NCBI GenBank assembly: GCA_040878185.1
Contig: JBBDMS010000021.1
Location: 52,667 to 116,666, forward strand
DNA from: Dongiaceae bacterium
GTDB taxonomy: Bacteria; Pseudomonadota; Alphaproteobacteria; Dongiales; Dongiaceae
Length of the DNA stretch: 64,000 bases
Direction of reading: 5' to 3'
Shown: positions 10,485 through 19,933 of the stretch, in pieces
Numbering within the stretch: position 1 is the first letter of the stretch
Layout: each line of letters starts with the position of its first letter
Program-made: the position numbers and the translations under genes
Notes under the pieces: generated by a model
Seen by the model: only the letters and a program-made list of their open reading frames with translations
What the model was told of the DNA's origin: nothing
Database searches by the model: none

Positions 10485-11786
10485 TCAGCCGCGCGCGGGC
10501 GCGTGGGGAAAGGCTTCGGCGAAACGCACCGGCCAGGTTTCGATCGGGAACGACTGGAACGAGCCGTCGTTCACGATGAGATCGTGCCGCGCCAGCCGGT
10601 CCGCATGGCGTTGGCAGAACGTGGCCCAGGAATCGTACCAGTCGTTCAGAAAAACGCCGCTTTCGTACTTCTTCAGAAGATCGCGGTCGCGCTTGCGCTG
10701 GCGGTTGGTGCGATCCGACCGGGCCATCTCGCCGGACTGGATATGAGCGCGGAGCCGTTCGCCCTGCGCCATCAAGGTCAGAACCGTCACGCGATCGGCA
10801 ACTCCCATCAAATGCAGCACCGGATCGCGATCGTAGGACCGGATGCCGGTGCGCGACGGGCGCAGGAAATCGTAATGCAACAGCACGCGCTCGTTGCGAC
10901 CGTTCGGCATCGAATCCGCTTCCGACGCCTGCAGGAGCTGCCAGTCTGAGCCGTCCAGACCGTATTGGGCGCGCAGCGACGCATCCGCCATCAGCCGGTC
11001 GATCAACGTGCTCTTCCCCACGCTCGTCGGCCCGGTGACAATCGCGAGATGCCCGATGCGGCGCTTGCGCGCTTCGACCAGCACACGGCCCTTGAACGGC
11101 GAGCGGCTGATCGTAACAGGCTCGAATGCGTTCGTGTGCACGTTGAGCACGATTTCGAGCGCACCTGGTGTGAAGAGATAGGTGCGCCCCGCCGCATCGC
11201 CGCGCTTCTTCGGGATTCCGAGAAACATCGCCGGCGAACCGATGCCGAAGACGCGAAGCGGGTTGATCCGGTCGCGCACGACATCGCGCCAGGTCGGCAC
11301 GGCGACTTCCAGAACCAGCCGGTCGCGCGTCATCCGCATCATCTTCTGCAACCCGCCAAGCGGATCGAACAGATGATGCAGCACGTTCAGACAGGCCACC
11401 GTATCGAACTGCCGTCCCCGATCGTCCCATTCCTCGAAATTGGCGCGGATATATTCAGGCCGGACCTCAAGTAATTCGGCGAACTCGCGGGCCTGACGCA
11501 GATTGCGCGGGTCGGTCTCGATACCGGTGGCCGTGGCGGCGCCGCGCTGCAGCGCCTCGACGCAGAAATAGCCGAGATAGCTGCCGATATCGAAGAACGT
11601 CTTGCCGTGAAAATCGTCGCCGAAGAGACGTGGCAGCAGATAACTGCGATCATAACCCGGCGTCGTGCCGCCATCGGGCAGGACGAACGCCTGATATTCC
11701 GGCGCCTCGTCGAGCAACCGCTGCAGACGCGCATGCCATTCGGGATCGCGATCCGGCTGCGGCACCGTCACTTTGCGGTCGTTCAT
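10485..11786 (-). CDS. fusion protein: class I SAM-dependent methyltransferase (N-terminal) + P-loop NTPase/kinase-like domain (C-terminal), paralog A
   Basis: MTase motif I FFDIGSYLGYF and CLNVLHHL. Walker A VTGPTSVGKST, Walker-B-like VLLHYD. ATG at 11786 (MNDRKV) avoids overlap with the upstream gene. Colinear with the 16834-18087 product. Confidence 0.65.
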   Translation of the reverse strand: MNDRKVTVPQPDRDPEWHARLQRLLDEAPEYQAFVLPDGGTTPGYDRSYLLPRLFGDDFHGKTFFDIGSYLGYFCVEALQRGAATATGIETDPRNLRQAREFAELLEVRPEYIRANFEEWDDRGRQFDTVACLNVLHHLFDPLGGLQKMMRMTRDRLVLEVAVPTWRDVVRDRINPLRVFGIGSPAMFLGIPKKRGDAAGRTYLFTPGALEIVLNVHTNAFEPVTISRSPFKGRVLVEARKRRIGHLAIVTGPTSVGKSTLIDRLMADASLRAQYGLDGSDWQLLQASEADSMPNGRNERVLLHYDFLRPSRTGIRSYDRDPVLHLMGVADRVTVLTLMAQGERLRAHIQSGEMARSDRTNRQRKRDRDLLKKYESGVFLNDWYDSWATFCQRHADRLARHDLIVNDGSFQSFPIETWPVRFAEAFPHAPARG

Positions 11787-11796
11787 GCGCGGCGGG

Positions 11797-12735
11797 TCAC
11801 AACGAAATTGCGAGGCGCTGGATCTCGTCCAGATCGAGCGCACGAGAGAGCGTGTCGACGGGCCAGTCGGCCGGGCTCAGCTCGGGTGCGTAGATATCGG
11901 TGTACTGGATCAGCAGCATGACCCGCGTTTTACTGTTCTGCCGCGAGCCATAATGCAGACAGCGCGACGTGTCGACCAGCATGCTTTGGCCCGGCTGGCC
12001 GGTCAGCTTCACTTCGCGGCTCGGACCCAGAAACCGGTCGACCTCTTCGATCGTCAGCCGCCCGCGGTCATAATTCAGCCCTTCGACCACGCGCTCGGAT
12101 TCGTCCGCCGGCAGGAAGGTGAACGGCCCGTGCTCGTCGGTCACGTCGTCGACGCACACGAACAACTTGACCTGACGGTCATCGGCGAAATCGAGATGAT
12201 AGAGCTGGCTGCCGATCTCGGAGAGATTCGGCAGGCTGACCATGACCGACACATCGCTCAGGATCGGCACCGCGCCGAGATAGCGGCTCACCGCATCGAG
12301 GACCGGGCGCGCCAACGCGAGGCGCATAATGTCGAGATACTGCGCAGTCGCGCGCTTCTGCGTGGCATAGACCAGGAATTCCTTGCGCGAGGCACCGTGA
12401 TCGTAACGCTGCAGCGCTCCGGTGCGTTCGCTCTCGCGAAAGACTTCCATGCCCTGTTTTACAGCCGGCGCGATCTCGGGCAGGCGGTTCGGTGCGACGG
12501 CGGCACAGGCACGCGCCCGATCGATCGCAACTGCATCGCTGGCAGCGACGCCCATTTGCCGCGCAAGCTCGGGACGATGCAGATAGGGAAACGGATTCAT
12601 CCCGATGCCGACCGCACGGCTGATACGGATCGCCGGCACGCGCGGCACCCCGAGACGCTTCGCCAGGAACAGATTGAGGTTCCGGCTGGTTGCGTAACGG
12701 GCCTTGGCATAAGACTGGCGAAGCGACTGGCTCAT
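11797..12735 (-). CDS. Fe(II)/2-oxoglutarate-dependent oxygenase-like protein (PhyH-like), putative
   Basis: HxD facial-triad candidate LYHLDFAD, distal CLHYGSRQNSKTR (His plus Arg), and GPFTFLP. Confidence 0.5.
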   Translation of the reverse strand: MSQSLRQSYAKARYATSRNLNLFLAKRLGVPRVPAIRISRAVGIGMNPFPYLHRPELARQMGVAASDAVAIDRARACAAVAPNRLPEIAPAVKQGMEVFRESERTGALQRYDHGASRKEFLVYATQKRATAQYLDIMRLALARPVLDAVSRYLGAVPILSDVSVMVSLPNLSEIGSQLYHLDFADDRQVKLFVCVDDVTDEHGPFTFLPADESERVVEGLNYDRGRLTIEEVDRFLGPSREVKLTGQPGQSMLVDTSRCLHYGSRQNSKTRVMLLIQYTDIYAPELSPADWPVDTLSRALDLDEIQRLAISL

Positions 12736-12979
12736 TCGGTCAGAAGACCTTCTGCGTTTGGGAGCCGCTGGCAGGGCGGCCGCATCGCGAAATACGCCAT
12801 CGTCCTGGCGGAGGCGAATCCCTTCATTTCGCGGCGAATTAGCTGGCCAGCCTCCATTCTTGTCAAGGCGACGCCCGACCGCAGCCTGCGATCCGCGGCT
12901 CGACAGTCATGAGGCTGCCGACTAGGCTTCGGCCTCCGCGCAACGCCCAACCTTCCGTTTCGAGACCGATCGCTGCGCC

Positions 12980-15332: not shown

Positions 15333-16700
15333 ATGTCCCGTATACCGCCCGAGACCCTGGTCATTCCGGTCGAGACCCTGAACCGGGAGTTCGACGGCAA
15401 GCTATTGCTCGCGTTGGCCGCTGCCGAACGCGGCTATCGGGCGATCGTCGGTGGACGAACCCGCCTCCATCGGCATCTGACCGACCTGCCGCCCTCGATC
15501 TATCTCAGCAAGGGCATCCGCACCGGCAATCGCGTGATCCTCTCGCTGCTCGAGAAGCTCGGCCATACCGTGGTCGCGCTCGAGGAGGAAGGGCTCGTGC
15601 GCTTTTCCGACGAAGCGTACCTGATGATGCTCGATGTAGAAACGTTCAACCGCGCGCAGATGCTGTTTGCCTGGGGCCATGACAATGCCGAGGTGTGGCG
15701 GCGGTTCGGCGGCTATCGCGGTACGCCCATCATCGAGGCCGGCAACCCGCGCATGGACATGCTGCGACCCGAAGTCCGTAATTTCTACACCGACGATGTG
15801 GCGGCGATCCGGCAACGCTACGGCCGCTTCGCGCTCTTCAACAGCAATTTCAGTTTCGTCAATCATTTCATTCCCGGCCATATCCGCTTCCGCATTCCGG
15901 CCAATGCACGCTCGGAACGCTACGACCAGATGCGCAGCGGCGTGTATCAGCACAAAAAAGCGTTGTTCGACAGTTTCTGCGCGCTGATCCCGTCGCTAAG
16001 CAAAGCCGTGCAGCCGCACAATCTGGTGATTCGCCCGCATCCATCCGAGAACCGGCAGACCTGGAGAGATGTCGCAGCGGGCCTGCCCAACGTGCATGTC
16101 GTGTATGAGGGTACTGTCGTGCCGTGGCTGCTGGCCGCCGACGTGTTGGTGCATAACAGCTGCACGAGCGGCGTGGAGGCAGCCATCCTCGGCACGCCCG
16201 CCTTGTCCTATCGTCCGGTTTGGTCGGCGGAGTTCGATCCGCCCTTGCCGAACGATGTCAGCAGTGAGTTCGACGATGCAGCGGCGCTGGGCGATGCGGC
16301 GCAGGCGATCCTCGCGCGCAATTCGGCGGAGCGCTCGCTCTCGCCGGCGAACTATGAGCGGTTGTCCCATCACGTCGCGGCGCTCGACGGTAAACTGAGT
16401 TGCGACCGGATTCTCGATGCGCTGGTCGAACAGCAGGACCGGTTTGCGTCGATGCCGGCCCCAGGCTTGCTCGACCGGGCCATCGGTCATGCCGGCGTCG
16501 CCGCCCGCAATGCGCGACGGGCGATCACGACCCGGATGATGGGCCGCAGCAGTGCGACCTATACCGCCTACAAATTTCCGGGACTGGACGAGGCCTATGT
16601 CGCCACCCGGATCGAACGGTTTTGCACCCTCCTCGGGCGGTTCGACGGCATCGGCGTCCGACGCCTTCGGGACGATATCTTTCTGCTGGAACGGCGCTGA
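15333..16700 (+). CDS. surface-carbohydrate biosynthesis protein, GT-B-like (candidate nonulosonate/glycosyl or phospho-glycosyl transferase)
   Basis: ATG at 15333 (MSRIPPETL). C-terminal Rossmann-like IRPHPSE ... VLVHNSCTSGVEAAILGTPAL is typical of GT-B enzymes. From memory it resembles the family annotated 'surface carbohydrate biosynthesis protein' that accompanies nonulosonate loci. Confidence 0.5.
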   Translation: MSRIPPETLVIPVETLNREFDGKLLLALAAAERGYRAIVGGRTRLHRHLTDLPPSIYLSKGIRTGNRVILSLLEKLGHTVVALEEEGLVRFSDEAYLMMLDVETFNRAQMLFAWGHDNAEVWRRFGGYRGTPIIEAGNPRMDMLRPEVRNFYTDDVAAIRQRYGRFALFNSNFSFVNHFIPGHIRFRIPANARSERYDQMRSGVYQHKKALFDSFCALIPSLSKAVQPHNLVIRPHPSENRQTWRDVAAGLPNVHVVYEGTVVPWLLAADVLVHNSCTSGVEAAILGTPALSYRPVWSAEFDPPLPNDVSSEFDDAAALGDAAQAILARNSAERSLSPANYERLSHHVAALDGKLSCDRILDALVEQQDRFASMPAPGLLDRAIGHAGVAARNARRAITTRMMGRSSATYTAYKFPGLDEAYVATRIERFCTLLGRFDGIGVRRLRDDIFLLERR

Positions 16701-16833
16701 ACCGCGCGCATCGAGACAATCGCCCGGCGTCGCCCGGATGGGGGCCGATTGTTGCGATCCGGCCCCGGCTGGCGTATCTCCTGCCGACGTTCCCGCCGCC
16801 CGTCCGACGCGGCCCTGACCGGAGGCTGACCCC

Positions 16834-18087
16834 TTGAACGAAACCGGCTGGACCGAAGCGCGCATCCGCGACCTGCTCGCCACGAACGCCTTTACCTATC
16901 AGAATGTGAAGCTGCCGCACGGGCTGTCGACCGGCGGGAAAGACCGCTCCAAGACGGCGCGCGCCATTTTTCCAGCCGCAATACCCGGACGCTCGGTTTT
17001 CGATATCGGTTGCATGTACGGTTTCTTCTGTTTCGAAGCCGAGGATCGCGGCGCGACGCAAGCTGTCGGCGCAGACATCGATCCGGAGAACGTGCGCAAA
17101 TGCCGCCTGCTGGCGGAAGTCCGCGGCTCGAATGCGCAGTTCGTCTATTTCGATATCGAAGGCGACGAGATTCCACAGCAGTACGACTATGTGCTGTGCC
17201 TGAACGTGTTGCACCATCTGCGCAATCCGATCGGCGCGCTGGAGAAGATGATCCGCGCCACGCGCGAGCGTCTTGTTCTCGAAATCGCCTCGTTTGGGCC
17301 CAACGACCGCCGGAAGAACGGCGTGTCGAGACTCGCCGCCGCCTTCCTGCGCCGCTTGCCTGTCATGTACGTGCCCGGCTCGTCTTCCTGGGGGCGCAGC
17401 ACGAGCCAGACGTTTTTCATCACGGAAAAGGCGATCGAAACGCTGCTGCTGGCGCATCGCGCGTCGTTCGCAAAGATCGACTTCATCGATACCGGGCATA
17501 AGGGTCGTTACATCGCGGTCGCGCACAAGCGCCGCATCGGACATCTCGTCGTCGTGGCGGGGCTGCAGGCATCCGGCAAATCGACGCTGATCGAAGAGAT
17601 TCTTTCGAAATCGGGATCGCTGATCGCGAAGTATATCGACCTTGATCCGTCGAAAGCCTGGTCGGTGCAGCGCTTCGGCAGTCTGGTCGAGAACCGGCAG
17701 GCCGAGCACCCGAACCTGATCCTGCATTACAACATCTCGAAGCATCTCATCGACGGCGATCTGTTCCATCACAGCCGGGCGCTGGCCGACGTGATGGCGA
17801 CGGCCGAGAAGGTCACCATTGTGACCGTCTGGTGCCCGCGCGAACGGCTACTGCAGCAGTTCCGCGAAGGCCGCACCGGCAAACATCGGAAGACGATGCT
17901 CTCCCGCCAGCATCGCAAGAAAATCAAGCAGCTCTCGGCGCTGTACGAAAGCGAGACCGCCCTGCAGACGATGTTCGACGAATGGTTCGCTTTCGTGAAA
18001 CGCCGGTCGGACCCCGGATTCGTGGTCGAATACGACAAGGACTACCGGGTTTCGACGCTGGCTGCGTGGAATCCGACCCCGCTTTGA
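16834..18087 (+). CDS. fusion protein: class I SAM-dependent methyltransferase + P-loop NTPase/kinase-like domain, paralog B
   Basis: TTG start 9 nt after GGAGG. VFDIGCMYGFF, CLNVLHHL; Walker A VAGLQASGKST; LILHYN. Colinear with the 10485-11786 product, including a shared KRRIGHL linker. Confidence 0.65.
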   Translation: MNETGWTEARIRDLLATNAFTYQNVKLPHGLSTGGKDRSKTARAIFPAAIPGRSVFDIGCMYGFFCFEAEDRGATQAVGADIDPENVRKCRLLAEVRGSNAQFVYFDIEGDEIPQQYDYVLCLNVLHHLRNPIGALEKMIRATRERLVLEIASFGPNDRRKNGVSRLAAAFLRRLPVMYVPGSSSWGRSTSQTFFITEKAIETLLLAHRASFAKIDFIDTGHKGRYIAVAHKRRIGHLVVVAGLQASGKSTLIEEILSKSGSLIAKYIDLDPSKAWSVQRFGSLVENRQAEHPNLILHYNISKHLIDGDLFHHSRALADVMATAEKVTIVTVWCPRERLLQQFREGRTGKHRKTMLSRQHRKKIKQLSALYESETALQTMFDEWFAFVKRRSDPGFVVEYDKDYRVSTLAAWNPTPL

Positions 18088-18154
18088 CCGCCGCCCGCCG
18101 CGGGCCGGCCCGCCATATTGCCGGGCCCGGCCGATTGGTCTATTCAGCGACCGG

Positions 18155-19933
18155 ATGACCGATCGAGACAAAATGAGCAATTCCGCGGAGAATCTCGAAT
18201 ACGGACCGAAATATTTCGGTGCCTTGCGCATCTTCGCGACGACTCCGCCACTCCGTCAGGTCACGGTGCTGGTCTGCCTTATCGCCGCGACCTTCGCGGA
18301 AGGATTTGGCATGGCCGCCATTCTGCCGCTGCTGTCGATCGCACAGGGCAACGCGGGCGGCGATTCGGCGCTGAACCAGTTGATCACCGGCCTGATCCAT
18401 TTCATGGGACTGCCGCTCGACCTCGGTGTGGTCGCCTGTCTCATGGTCGCCGGATTCGTGGTCAAGGCCGCGCTGACGATGTTCGCGATGGGTCATGTCG
18501 GATACACGGTGACCAAGGTGACGACGGGGCTGCGGCTCAAGCTGATCGGGCGTCTGCTCGAAGCGAAATGGAGCTATTTCGCGCATCAGCCGGTCGGCCG
18601 GTTCGGCAATGCGATCAGCGGCGAAGCGGCGCGCGCGGGCGACGCGTATCTCGCGGTCGCAACGCTGATCGCCCTCACCTTCCAGACCATCATGTATCTG
18701 ATCCTTGCCTATCTGATGTCGTGGAAGCTCGCGCTTGCCGCAATCGCCCTTGGCGCGGTCATCGTCGTATCGCTCAACTGGCTGATCCGGGTGACAAAGC
18801 GCGCCGGCCGGACCCAGACCGCGCGCACCCGAAGCCTGACCGCGGGCCTGACCGACGCGCTGATCGGATTGAAACCGCTCAAGGCGATGGCACGCAACCT
18901 GCGATTCACCACGTTGTTCGACCGCGACGTGAAGGAGCTGAAGCGAGCTCTGCGCCGTCAGGTGCTGGCACGGAACGCAACCCGCTCCATGCAGGAAGTG
19001 ATGATCGTCGTGGCGATCGCGGTCGGATTTTATGGCGCCGTCGAAGTCGCGCATTACCCGGTCGATCAGGTCATCGTCATCGCGCTGCTTCTCATCAAGA
19101 CCGTGCTCACCTTGGCGCAGTCCCAGCGCACCCTGCAATCGGTCAATCAATGCGAGAGCGCCTACTGGTCGCTGCACGAGACGATCAAGGAAGCGGAAGC
19201 CGCCAAGGAGATATTCGTCGGCACCCGTGAACCGACTCTCGAACGCAACATCGAGTTTCACAATGTTGCGTTCTCGTTCGGGACCAAGGATGTGTTGCGC
19301 GGCGTGTCGCTCGAGATTCCCGCAGGCCAGGTGACGACGGTGACCGGCGGTTCCGGTGCCGGCAAAACAACGACCGCCGATCTCGTGCTCGGCCTCTATA
19401 TGCCCAAATCCGGCGATATTACCGTCGACGGCGTGTCGCTCCGCAACATCGATCTCCATAAATGGCGGGCGATGACCGGCTATGTGCCGCAGGAAGTGAT
19501 CCTCTTTCACGACACGATTTACGCCAACATCGCGCTCGGCGATCCGGCCTTCGACCCCGAGACGGTGCGCAATGCACTGGAAGCGGCCGGCGCATGGGAG
19601 TTCGTCACGGAATTGCCCGATCGGATGGACAGCGTCGTCGGCGAGCGCGGTACGCTCCTCTCGGGCGGCCAGCGCCAGCGCATTGCGGTCGCCCGTGCGA
19701 TCGTGCATCGACCCAAGCTGGTCATCCTCGACGAGGCGACGAGTGCACTCGATCCCGAAACCGAGTTCGCGATCTGCAGCAATCTGAAGTCGCTATCGCG
19801 CCGCACGGGCCTCACCATTCTGGCGATCACGCATCAGCCGGCCTGGGTCGAGGCGGCGGACCGGCTCTATCGCATCGCCGACGGACGGGTCATCGAGCCC
19901 ACGCCGCAGAGCGCGGCGATGGCGGCTTCCTGA
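18155..19933 (+). CDS. ABC exporter, fused TMD-NBD (MsbA/lipid-flippase-like half transporter)
   Basis: Six-helix N-terminal domain. Walker A GGSGAGKTT, signature LSGGQRQRIAVARA, Walker B LVILDEATSALD. Confidence 0.85.
   Translation: MTDRDKMSNSAENLEYGPKYFGALRIFATTPPLRQVTVLVCLIAATFAEGFGMAAILPLLSIAQGNAGGDSALNQLITGLIHFMGLPLDLGVVACLMVAGFVVKAALTMFAMGHVGYTVTKVTTGLRLKLIGRLLEAKWSYFAHQPVGRFGNAISGEAARAGDAYLAVATLIALTFQTIMYLILAYLMSWKLALAAIALGAVIVVSLNWLIRVTKRAGRTQTARTRSLTAGLTDALIGLKPLKAMARNLRFTTLFDRDVKELKRALRRQVLARNATRSMQEVMIVVAIAVGFYGAVEVAHYPVDQVIVIALLLIKTVLTLAQSQRTLQSVNQCESAYWSLHETIKEAEAAKEIFVGTREPTLERNIEFHNVAFSFGTKDVLRGVSLEIPAGQVTTVTGGSGAGKTTTADLVLGLYMPKSGDITVDGVSLRNIDLHKWRAMTGYVPQEVILFHDTIYANIALGDPAFDPETVRNALEAAGAWEFVTELPDRMDSVVGERGTLLSGGQRQRIAVARAIVHRPKLVILDEATSALDPETEFAICSNLKSLSRRTGLTILAITHQPAWVEAADRLYRIADGRVIEPTPQSAAMAAS

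Follow-up and report, generated by a model that had tools for sequence, protein, structure and literature searches.

Gene B of a Dongiaceae bacterium, a conserved predicted methyltransferase/P-loop fusion encoded beside an ABC exporter gene

The DNA analysed in this work, referred to as the window, is a 64,000-nucleotide stretch of contig JBBDMS010000021.1 (positions 52,667 to 116,666) from an uncultured Dongiaceae bacterium, which is represented by a metagenome-assembled genome. The window carries two copies of a gene in which a predicted methyltransferase is fused to a P-loop domain, designated A and B, and gene B, located directly upstream of a gene for an ATP-binding cassette (ABC) exporter, is the subject of this report. 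Both domains of B are under strong purifying selection, and B is very probably functional and not degenerate. The asparagine at its position 300, where A has an aspartate, is the signature of an old B-type ("HYN") subfamily and does not indicate decay. The explanation that best fits all observations, which we hold with moderate confidence, is that B is a functional two-domain enzyme of this HYN type, tailoring a lipid-linked glycan or glycosphingolipid before export. The coordinates of all features are collected in Table 1.

Coding sequence and predicted domains of B

The ratio of nonsynonymous to synonymous substitution rates (dN/dS) of B was 0.046 against an ortholog of 94% identity (locus L003) and 0.069 against an ortholog of 78% identity (locus L001), and it was equal for the methyltransferase and P-loop halves. 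Both orthologs had the same length and the same motifs as B, which held every family-invariant residue and motif in both domains. These low ratios mark B as a conserved, functional gene and its asparagine as a subfamily signature instead of a trace of decay, so that the possibility of a pseudogene, considered in a preliminary description of this DNA, did not hold.

The TTG of B is the earliest start codon available past the upstream stop. Since the N-termini of homologues lie 5–6 residues ahead of the conserved Trp6, this start is well placed. The TTG start, the good GGAGG ribosome-binding site, and the 67-nt distance to the exporter gene were all found as the preliminary description gave them. 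The gap before the exporter gene contained no terminator-like site, and such sites between positions 12800 and 20100 were not above the shuffled expectation. An antisense open reading frame (ORF) of 415 aa at window positions 16525–17772 (minus strand) overlaps B. Because homology and purifying selection reside in the frame of B, this ORF is in all likelihood spurious, a product of the 63% G+C content.

The N-terminal half of B is predicted to be a class I S-adenosylmethionine (SAM)-dependent methyltransferase. Five Pfam methyltransferase models matched residues ~45–160 above their gathering cut-offs, and the hallmarks of the class were present as motif I (D57-IGCMY-G63) and an acidic residue, D81, at the end of strand 2. 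The domain also includes an N-terminal hairpin (YQ..LP.GL.TGG.DRS) and a lid segment. Residues R38, G59, G63, G73, A74, D118, L123, N124, H127, H128, P132, L147, E150, and R225 were invariant in the family, with Y22 near-invariant. An AlphaFold2 model of the whole protein, built from an alignment of 107 sequences, reached a predicted local distance difference test (pLDDT) score of 92.4 and a predicted template modelling (pTM) score of 0.91. The Foldseek search with this model returned methyltransferases only (ChlM, ToxA, XrdM, EvdMO1, CmoB, MePCE, and NodS), with a probability of 1.0 for ChlM, ToxA, EvdMO1, and CmoB. Among known families, TIGR04290 (meth_Rta_06860; 67.1 bits) and the CmoB/DUF1698-type methyltransferases gave the best NCBIfam and Pfam-related matches to this half, with CmoB providing the longest model coverage of ~280 columns. 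However, B scored far under the cut-offs of both (67 vs. the curated 300 bits for TIGR04290, and 41 vs. 209–275 bits for the CmoB type), and unlike B, none of these families has a P-loop domain.

As the Foldseek search of the whole protein was dominated by the methyltransferase half, the C-terminal domain was modelled and searched separately, using the last 190 residues and 53 domain sequences from the window and the fetched loci. The resulting AlphaFold2 model (pLDDT 90.2) found UMP/CMP kinase, AbmG, adenylate kinases, guanylate kinase, and PPK2 as its top folds in the PDB. The C-terminal half is thus predicted to be a divergent representative of the P-loop kinase/sulfotransferase fold class, nearer to the kinases. 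The best structural matches, namely the nucleoside monophosphate (NMP) kinase-like P-loop kinases (UMP/CMP kinase 1UKE, adenylate kinases, AbmG 8J5H, and PPK2), share with B the position of Walker A, the strand order implied by DSSP, and a basic segment at the location of the LID, but have only 11–17% identity to the domain of B at TM-scores of 0.40–0.49, with no Pfam kinase match. While these kinases carry an aspartate at the end of strand 3, this acidic Walker-B-like residue is replaced in B by N300, with aspartate in A and other subfamilies. Judged by topology, the label "Walker B" used for this position in the preliminary description is reasonable, since the third strand of a P-loop kinase fold has this residue at its C-terminal end. 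The P-loop domain of B may carry out ATP-dependent phosphotransfer.

No Pfam family covered the C-terminal domain, for which only AAA_33 and AAA_16 gave hits, under the threshold, near residue 240, and in a profile search the domain matched PDB sequences at the P-loop motif alone. Its own profile recovered 1261 clusters among 1.84 billion representatives, 935 of them at E ≤ 1e-10.

Family relationships of A and B

B and A aligned by BLASTP in a single colinear high-scoring segment pair (B 9–393, A 38–415; 386 aa) with 34% identity, 52% positives, 9 gaps, and an E-value of 3e-64, which bears out the earlier claim of colinearity. The four motif pairs quoted in support of that claim were all present as written, including LILHYN vs. 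VLLHYD. The similarity was not confined to the generic methyltransferase and P-loop motifs, because the region after Walker A alone still matched at E 7e-11 and the interdomain segment alone at E 6e-7. Identity was 47% in the methyltransferase core, 54% around the P-loop, and 22–33% elsewhere, with a minimum of 14–16% in residues 259–322. The two proteins differed most in the segment past strand β3, which reads HYNISKHLIDGDL in B and HYD.LRP.RR in A.

A tblastn search of the window with B found one further copy, on the minus strand at ~10599–11732, inside the ORF of A. A and B are the sole two copies in the genome (3.68 Mb, 97.6% complete). The maximal ORF of A (GTG start) runs ~25 residues past the N-termini of its homologues and would overlap a divergent ORF starting at 11773, and the start near 11768 (MNDRKV...) is the better fit to the family.

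B retrieved 128 full-length relatives of ~410–440 aa, and a genome scan yielded 55 loci (L numbers) from Alphaproteobacteria, Myxococcota, Desulfobacterota, Nitrospirota, Planctomycetota, Verrucomicrobiota, and other groups. A maximum-likelihood tree of 135 non-redundant members was obtained by a quick search, with branch support from the Shimodaira–Hasegawa-like approximate likelihood ratio test (SH-aLRT) alone. In this tree, B fell into a clade of 39 rows (SH-aLRT 100), 38 of which have asparagine at position 300, the lone exception being a row with a wrecked P-loop. A fell into a separate clade of eight rows (SH-aLRT 100), several starred branches away from B. The Asn/Asp label changed only five times on the tree, compared with ~37 times when shuffled. 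The clear divergence of the two copies noted in the preliminary description was thus reproduced by both alignment and phylogeny, and A and B are ancient paralogs in different old orthologous groups, with no recent duplication between them.

The Walker A motif GxxxxGK[ST] was intact in 43 of 45 Asn-type members. By comparison, the 94 Asp-type members comprised 49 with an intact motif, 21 with the form GK[KR][ST], and 24 with a fully degenerate loop. The GK[KR][ST] form, which resembles the NMP kinase motif GKGT, may have remained functional. Each group also had its characteristic sequence past strand 3: it continues as HYNISKHLIDGDL..H.RAL in B-type members, as HYDFLRP..RS in Asp-type members, and as HYD.LRP.RR.IRSY.RDP in the A clade. 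By analogy with P-loop kinases, where this segment usually contacts the acceptor, it may do the same here.

A-type and B-type copies occurred together in the window and in at least four other loci, L001, L003, L004, and L006. Loci with several copies were common, with a maximum of five copies at L022. The earlier suggestion that the two copies serve two distinct acceptor positions fits both the co-occurrence of these old groups and the divergent segment past strand β3, and we retain it as a proposal short of demonstration.

At four loci (L022, L028, L033, and L035), divergently oriented neighbours had lost complementary domains. In each pair, one protein lacked the SAM-binding and HH motifs and kept an intact Asn-type P-loop, while its neighbour kept all methyltransferase motifs and had a destroyed P-loop. 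In a tree of the P-loop domain, the four methyltransferase-dead proteins formed one group (SH-aLRT 96) within the B-type clade, and in the tree of 135 members their P-loop-dead partners also formed one clade. This single grouping on each side suggests that one old event, an ancient subfunctionalisation, has persisted in four genomes. The complementary decay argues that both activities are required jointly and can reside on separate polypeptides, and also that the Asn-type P-loop domain has its own function. It further suggests that the copies work together.

The alternative in the preliminary description, with one catalytic and one degenerate or regulatory copy, was not supported for B by its asparagine: the residue is fixed in the clade of B, Walker A is better preserved in Asn-type than in Asp-type members, and the Asn-type P-loop is the part retained when relatives lose one domain.

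The gene was carried by three of the 24 sampled genomes of the window's taxonomic family, which makes it part of an accessory, patchily distributed island. Two of the three belong to congeners of the window's organism and have A as well as B; the third, from another genus, had a single copy of 46% identity. Internal stops were found in two family members elsewhere (L002:9294–10592, plus strand; L028:3875–5095, minus strand), and the B-type copy of L002 was called as two pieces of 359 aa and 56 aa. These stops indicate that copies decay in some lineages, unlike B of the window.

Proposed role of B and alternative explanations

The closest functional comparison is WbdD of E. coli O9a and K. pneumoniae O3 (PDB 4AZS), which phosphorylates the terminal mannose of the O9a chain and then methylates the phosphate, thereby producing the signal for ABC export (PMC3482155). 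Methylation of the phosphate requires H132/H133, R203, and Y16 (PMC3482155). The WbdD methyltransferase ranked near the top of the PDB sequences matched by the family profile (E 2.6e-12), and in the profile alignment its H132/H133 corresponded to the family-invariant H127/H128 of B. The WbdD numbering was checked through D82, which aligned with D81 of B (PMC3482155).

Like B, WbdD combines an N-terminal class I SAM methyltransferase and a kinase-type domain in one polypeptide, and both genes adjoin an ABC exporter of an envelope glycoconjugate. The two proteins differ in several respects. The kinase of WbdD has the eukaryotic protein-kinase fold, whereas the C-terminal domain of B is predicted to have a P-loop fold. 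WbdD extends into a C-terminal coiled-coil ruler, while B lacks one and ends at residue 417 with two short strands. The exporter served by WbdD is Wzm/Wzt with a carbohydrate-binding module, while that of B is a fused MsbA-like half-transporter. Finally, a methyl phosphate is the product of WbdD and a putative one of B.

Taking the observations together, we find it rather likely that B is a glycolipid- or glycan-tailoring enzyme with a specificity distinct from that of A, and we infer its chemistry and substrate from domain identity, conservation, pairing, and genomic context. In the proposed mechanism, the head group of the island's lipid-linked glycan or glycosphingolipid would be tailored at one position by A and at another by B, on the cytoplasmic side and ahead of flipping by the adjacent ABC exporter. 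The P-loop domain would use ATP to phosphorylate the acceptor, and the methyltransferase, whose invariant His-His/Arg pocket resembles the WbdD site, would methylate either this phosphate or some other anionic group. Probably the copies function as a dimer or one after the other. That B follows the specific kinase-then-phosphate-methylation chemistry of WbdD is a tentative analogy, and on balance we regard it as somewhat doubtful.

Several observations weigh against this proposal. NodS and RebM, neither of which methylates phosphate, have a His-His pair as well, so the pair is not diagnostic, and WbdD was outside the 50 best structural matches of the whole B model. The invariant R225, located where the methyltransferase domain ends, and the near-invariant Y22 lie at plausible places and are candidate equivalents of R203 and Y16, although the local alignment with WbdD stops short of them. 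The kinase fold match of the C-terminal domain is weak (E ~1e-3, best 8.8e-4, at the TM-scores given above), and the sulfotransferases SULT1C2 and mSULT2A8 were also among its fold matches (E ~1e-2). The asparagine at the Walker-B-like position could mean that ATP is bound without transfer. About a quarter of the Asp-type members have no P-loop, which implies that kinase chemistry is not universally required in the family. In addition, two of three extra look-ups, L068 and L070, showed unrelated neighbours.

Methyl-phosphate capping has more than one origin. K. pneumoniae O7 uses a methyltransferase–kinase terminator with an unrelated kinase domain (PMC11231755), so such capping enzymes arose repeatedly from a methyltransferase and an unrelated kinase; this ORF6 is the precedent for regarding the family of B as one more combination of the kind. 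Unlike B, ORF6 has a kinase fold of the aminoglycoside-kinase type, a coiled coil, and glycosyltransferase modules, and no sequence relationship between ORF6 and B was found. A more far-reaching proposal, which we consider speculative and improbable as a whole, is that B and its relatives form a third kind of capping enzyme, assembled independently from a P-loop kinase and a phosphate methyltransferase and acting on the head groups of bacterial glycosphingolipids or lipid-linked glycans, with A-type and B-type copies as obligate partners and the cap licensing export by the adjacent MsbA-like transporter. Such an obligate partnership would account for the complementary loss of domains seen in some lineages.

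The replacement of the acidic residue by asparagine across the B-type clade also allows an explanation in which the P-loop of B binds nucleotide without transferring phosphate, serving as a sensor, regulator, or dimerisation scaffold for its methyltransferase or for A, with A as the catalytic copy. In P-loop NTPases, an Asp-to-Asn change in Walker B usually keeps binding and slows chemistry. The domain persists in the 24 Asp-type members without Walker A, indicating a role besides catalysis, and the complementary-loss pairs suggest a physical partnership. Nevertheless, the B-type Walker A is the best conserved in the family, numerous P-loop kinases work without the canonical Walker B aspartate, and the dN/dS of the domain was 0.06. 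Moreover, copies without a methyltransferase retain the Asn-type P-loop, so the domain is no mere accessory to its own methyltransferase. We therefore consider pure nucleotide binding unlikely.

A role of the P-loop domain in sulfation appears less probable still. It could bind 3′-phosphoadenosine 5′-phosphosulfate (PAPS) or adenosine 5′-phosphosulfate (APS), acting as a non-canonical sulfotransferase or as an APS kinase-like PAPS supplier, or it could hand the donor over to neighbouring sulfotransferases. Sulfotransferases are frequent neighbours of the family, a sulfotransferase is fused to the P-loop domain in proteins P0142 and P0138, and sulfotransferases have the P-loop kinase fold, which agrees with the SULT1C2 and mSULT2A8 matches. 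On the other hand, NMP kinases outranked sulfotransferases in the fold search, and several family members have no sulfotransferase nearby. B had no Pfam sulfotransferase match (PF00685 or PF13469) at E ≤ 0.01 and no Pfam APS kinase match (PF01583), and its loop is a true Walker A, GxxxxGK[ST], instead of a PKxGTT-type 5′-phosphosulfate-binding (5′-PSB) loop. A canonical CysN/CysC with an APS kinase part (E 5.6e-67) is also encoded elsewhere in the genome.

Finally, the idea that B is a recent, redundant copy of A or a pseudogene of it in decay, for which its TTG start and the asparagine at the motif position might be read as decay signs, was rejected on the tree and dN/dS and has a negligible probability, since the two copies share just 34% identity and sit in different old clades, dN/dS is ~0.05, the orthologs of 94% and 78% identity retain length and motifs, all invariant residues are present, and the TTG, 8 nt downstream of GGAGG, matches the N-termini of homologues.

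The C-terminal domain of B thus belongs to a large family (~1,260 clusters at 50% identity) that lacks both a Pfam model and a characterised member and, across many phyla, is found repeatedly next to exporters, sulfotransferases, and sphingolipid genes. The distinct, co-retained A and B groups and the retained Asn-type P-loop point to residues and partners worth testing. If true, the kinase-then-methylation chemistry would carry the WbdD principle, capping ahead of ABC export, over to bacterial glycosphingolipids, and would open a way to study the completion and export of these lipids.

Genomic context, fused architectures, and feature coordinates

In the window, B is preceded by two sulfotransferase genes and a gene for a TIGR04396 surface-carbohydrate protein, and followed by the MsbA/PglK/HepA-like exporter and a Caulobacter-type ceramide core comprising a fatty acyl-AMP ligase (FAAL), a short-chain dehydrogenase/reductase (SDR), and Spt. 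The NCBIfam matches of the exporter were under the cut-offs and denote similarity only. The adjacency of B and the exporter also occurred at L001, L003, and L006, with synteny retained at L001 and L003; an acyl carrier protein (ACP) was observed solely in the syntenic L001. Elsewhere, family members frequently adjoined MsbA-like exporters (L006, L008, L011, L031, L032, L037, and L040), and also ELM1-like proteins, sulfotransferases (L002 and L069), and ceramide genes (L008, L011, and L016). Carriers in culture include Aestuariivirga litoralis KCTC 52945 (L027), whose single Asp-type copy is close to an ELM1-like gene and an ABC exporter, and Sphingomonas daechungensis JCM 17887 (L046), with a copy of the A clade. 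Literature searches found no description of a methyltransferase/P-loop fusion in sphingolipid or sulfated-glycan loci.

Table 1. Features of gene B, its surroundings, and related loci (positions refer to the window unless a locus is named)
Feature	Location	Strand	Remarks
Paralog B coding sequence	16834..18087	+	417 aa, TTG start, TGA stop; open ORF
Shine-Dalgarno-like GGAGG	16821..16825	+	8 nt upstream of the TTG of B; from sequence
Predicted class I SAM-dependent methyltransferase domain (aa 1-227)	16834..17514	+	Pfam, Foldseek
SAM-binding motif I, D57-I-G-C-M-Y-G63	17002..17022	+	D57, G59, G63 invariant or nearly so in 107 sequences
His127-His128 of the CLNVLHH motif	17212..17217	+	invariant in 107 sequences
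Predicted divergent P-loop kinase-like domain (aa 228-417)	17515..18084	+	AlphaFold2 model, Foldseek; no Pfam family
Walker A, G243-LQAS-G248-K249-S250-T251	17560..17586	+	alignments; fits GxxxxGK[ST]
H298-Y299-N300, end of strand β3, Walker-B-like position	17725..17733	+	DSSP strand 291-300; Asn in B, Asp in A
Intergenic gap between B and ABC exporter	18088..18154	+	67 nt, from B stop (18085-18087) to exporter ATG (18155); no terminator-like site
MsbA/PglK/HepA-like fused ABC exporter	18155..19933	+	592 aa; Pfam ABC_membrane + ABC_tran; directly downstream of B
Paralog A (Asp-type)	10485..11843	-	maximal ORF 452 aa; homologue N-termini suggest start near 11768
Complementary-decay pair	L022:11261-12367 with L022:12519..	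- / +	divergent neighbours
Complementary-decay pair	L028:1176-2615 with L028:2648..	- / +	divergent neighbours
Complementary-decay pair	L033:3979-5076 with L033:5279..	- / +	divergent neighbours
Complementary-decay pair	L035:8601-9746 with L035:10001..	- / +	divergent neighbours
Fusion	P0142		sulfotransferase + P-loop
Fusion	P0138		methyltransferase + P-loop + sulfotransferase
Fusion	P0251		glycosyltransferase family 2 (GT2) + methyltransferase + P-loop
Fusion	L017:2282-4384	+	methyltransferase + P-loop + second methyltransferase, 701 aa
Tandem double copy within one ORF	L022:7533-9926	+	

The fused architectures listed in Table 1 tie the P-loop domain to glycan tailoring. Apparently stand-alone P-loop proteins of ~200 aa were also found, some of which may be fragments.

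The canonical CysN/CysC, a sulfate adenylyltransferase subunit fused to APS kinase, lies outside the window (genome G000, contig C52:2–1600, plus strand), where its ORF enters from the contig start. With this enzyme present, the P-loop domain is unnecessary as a substitute for a missing APS kinase, and CysN/CysC would supply PAPS to the three sulfotransferases of the island.

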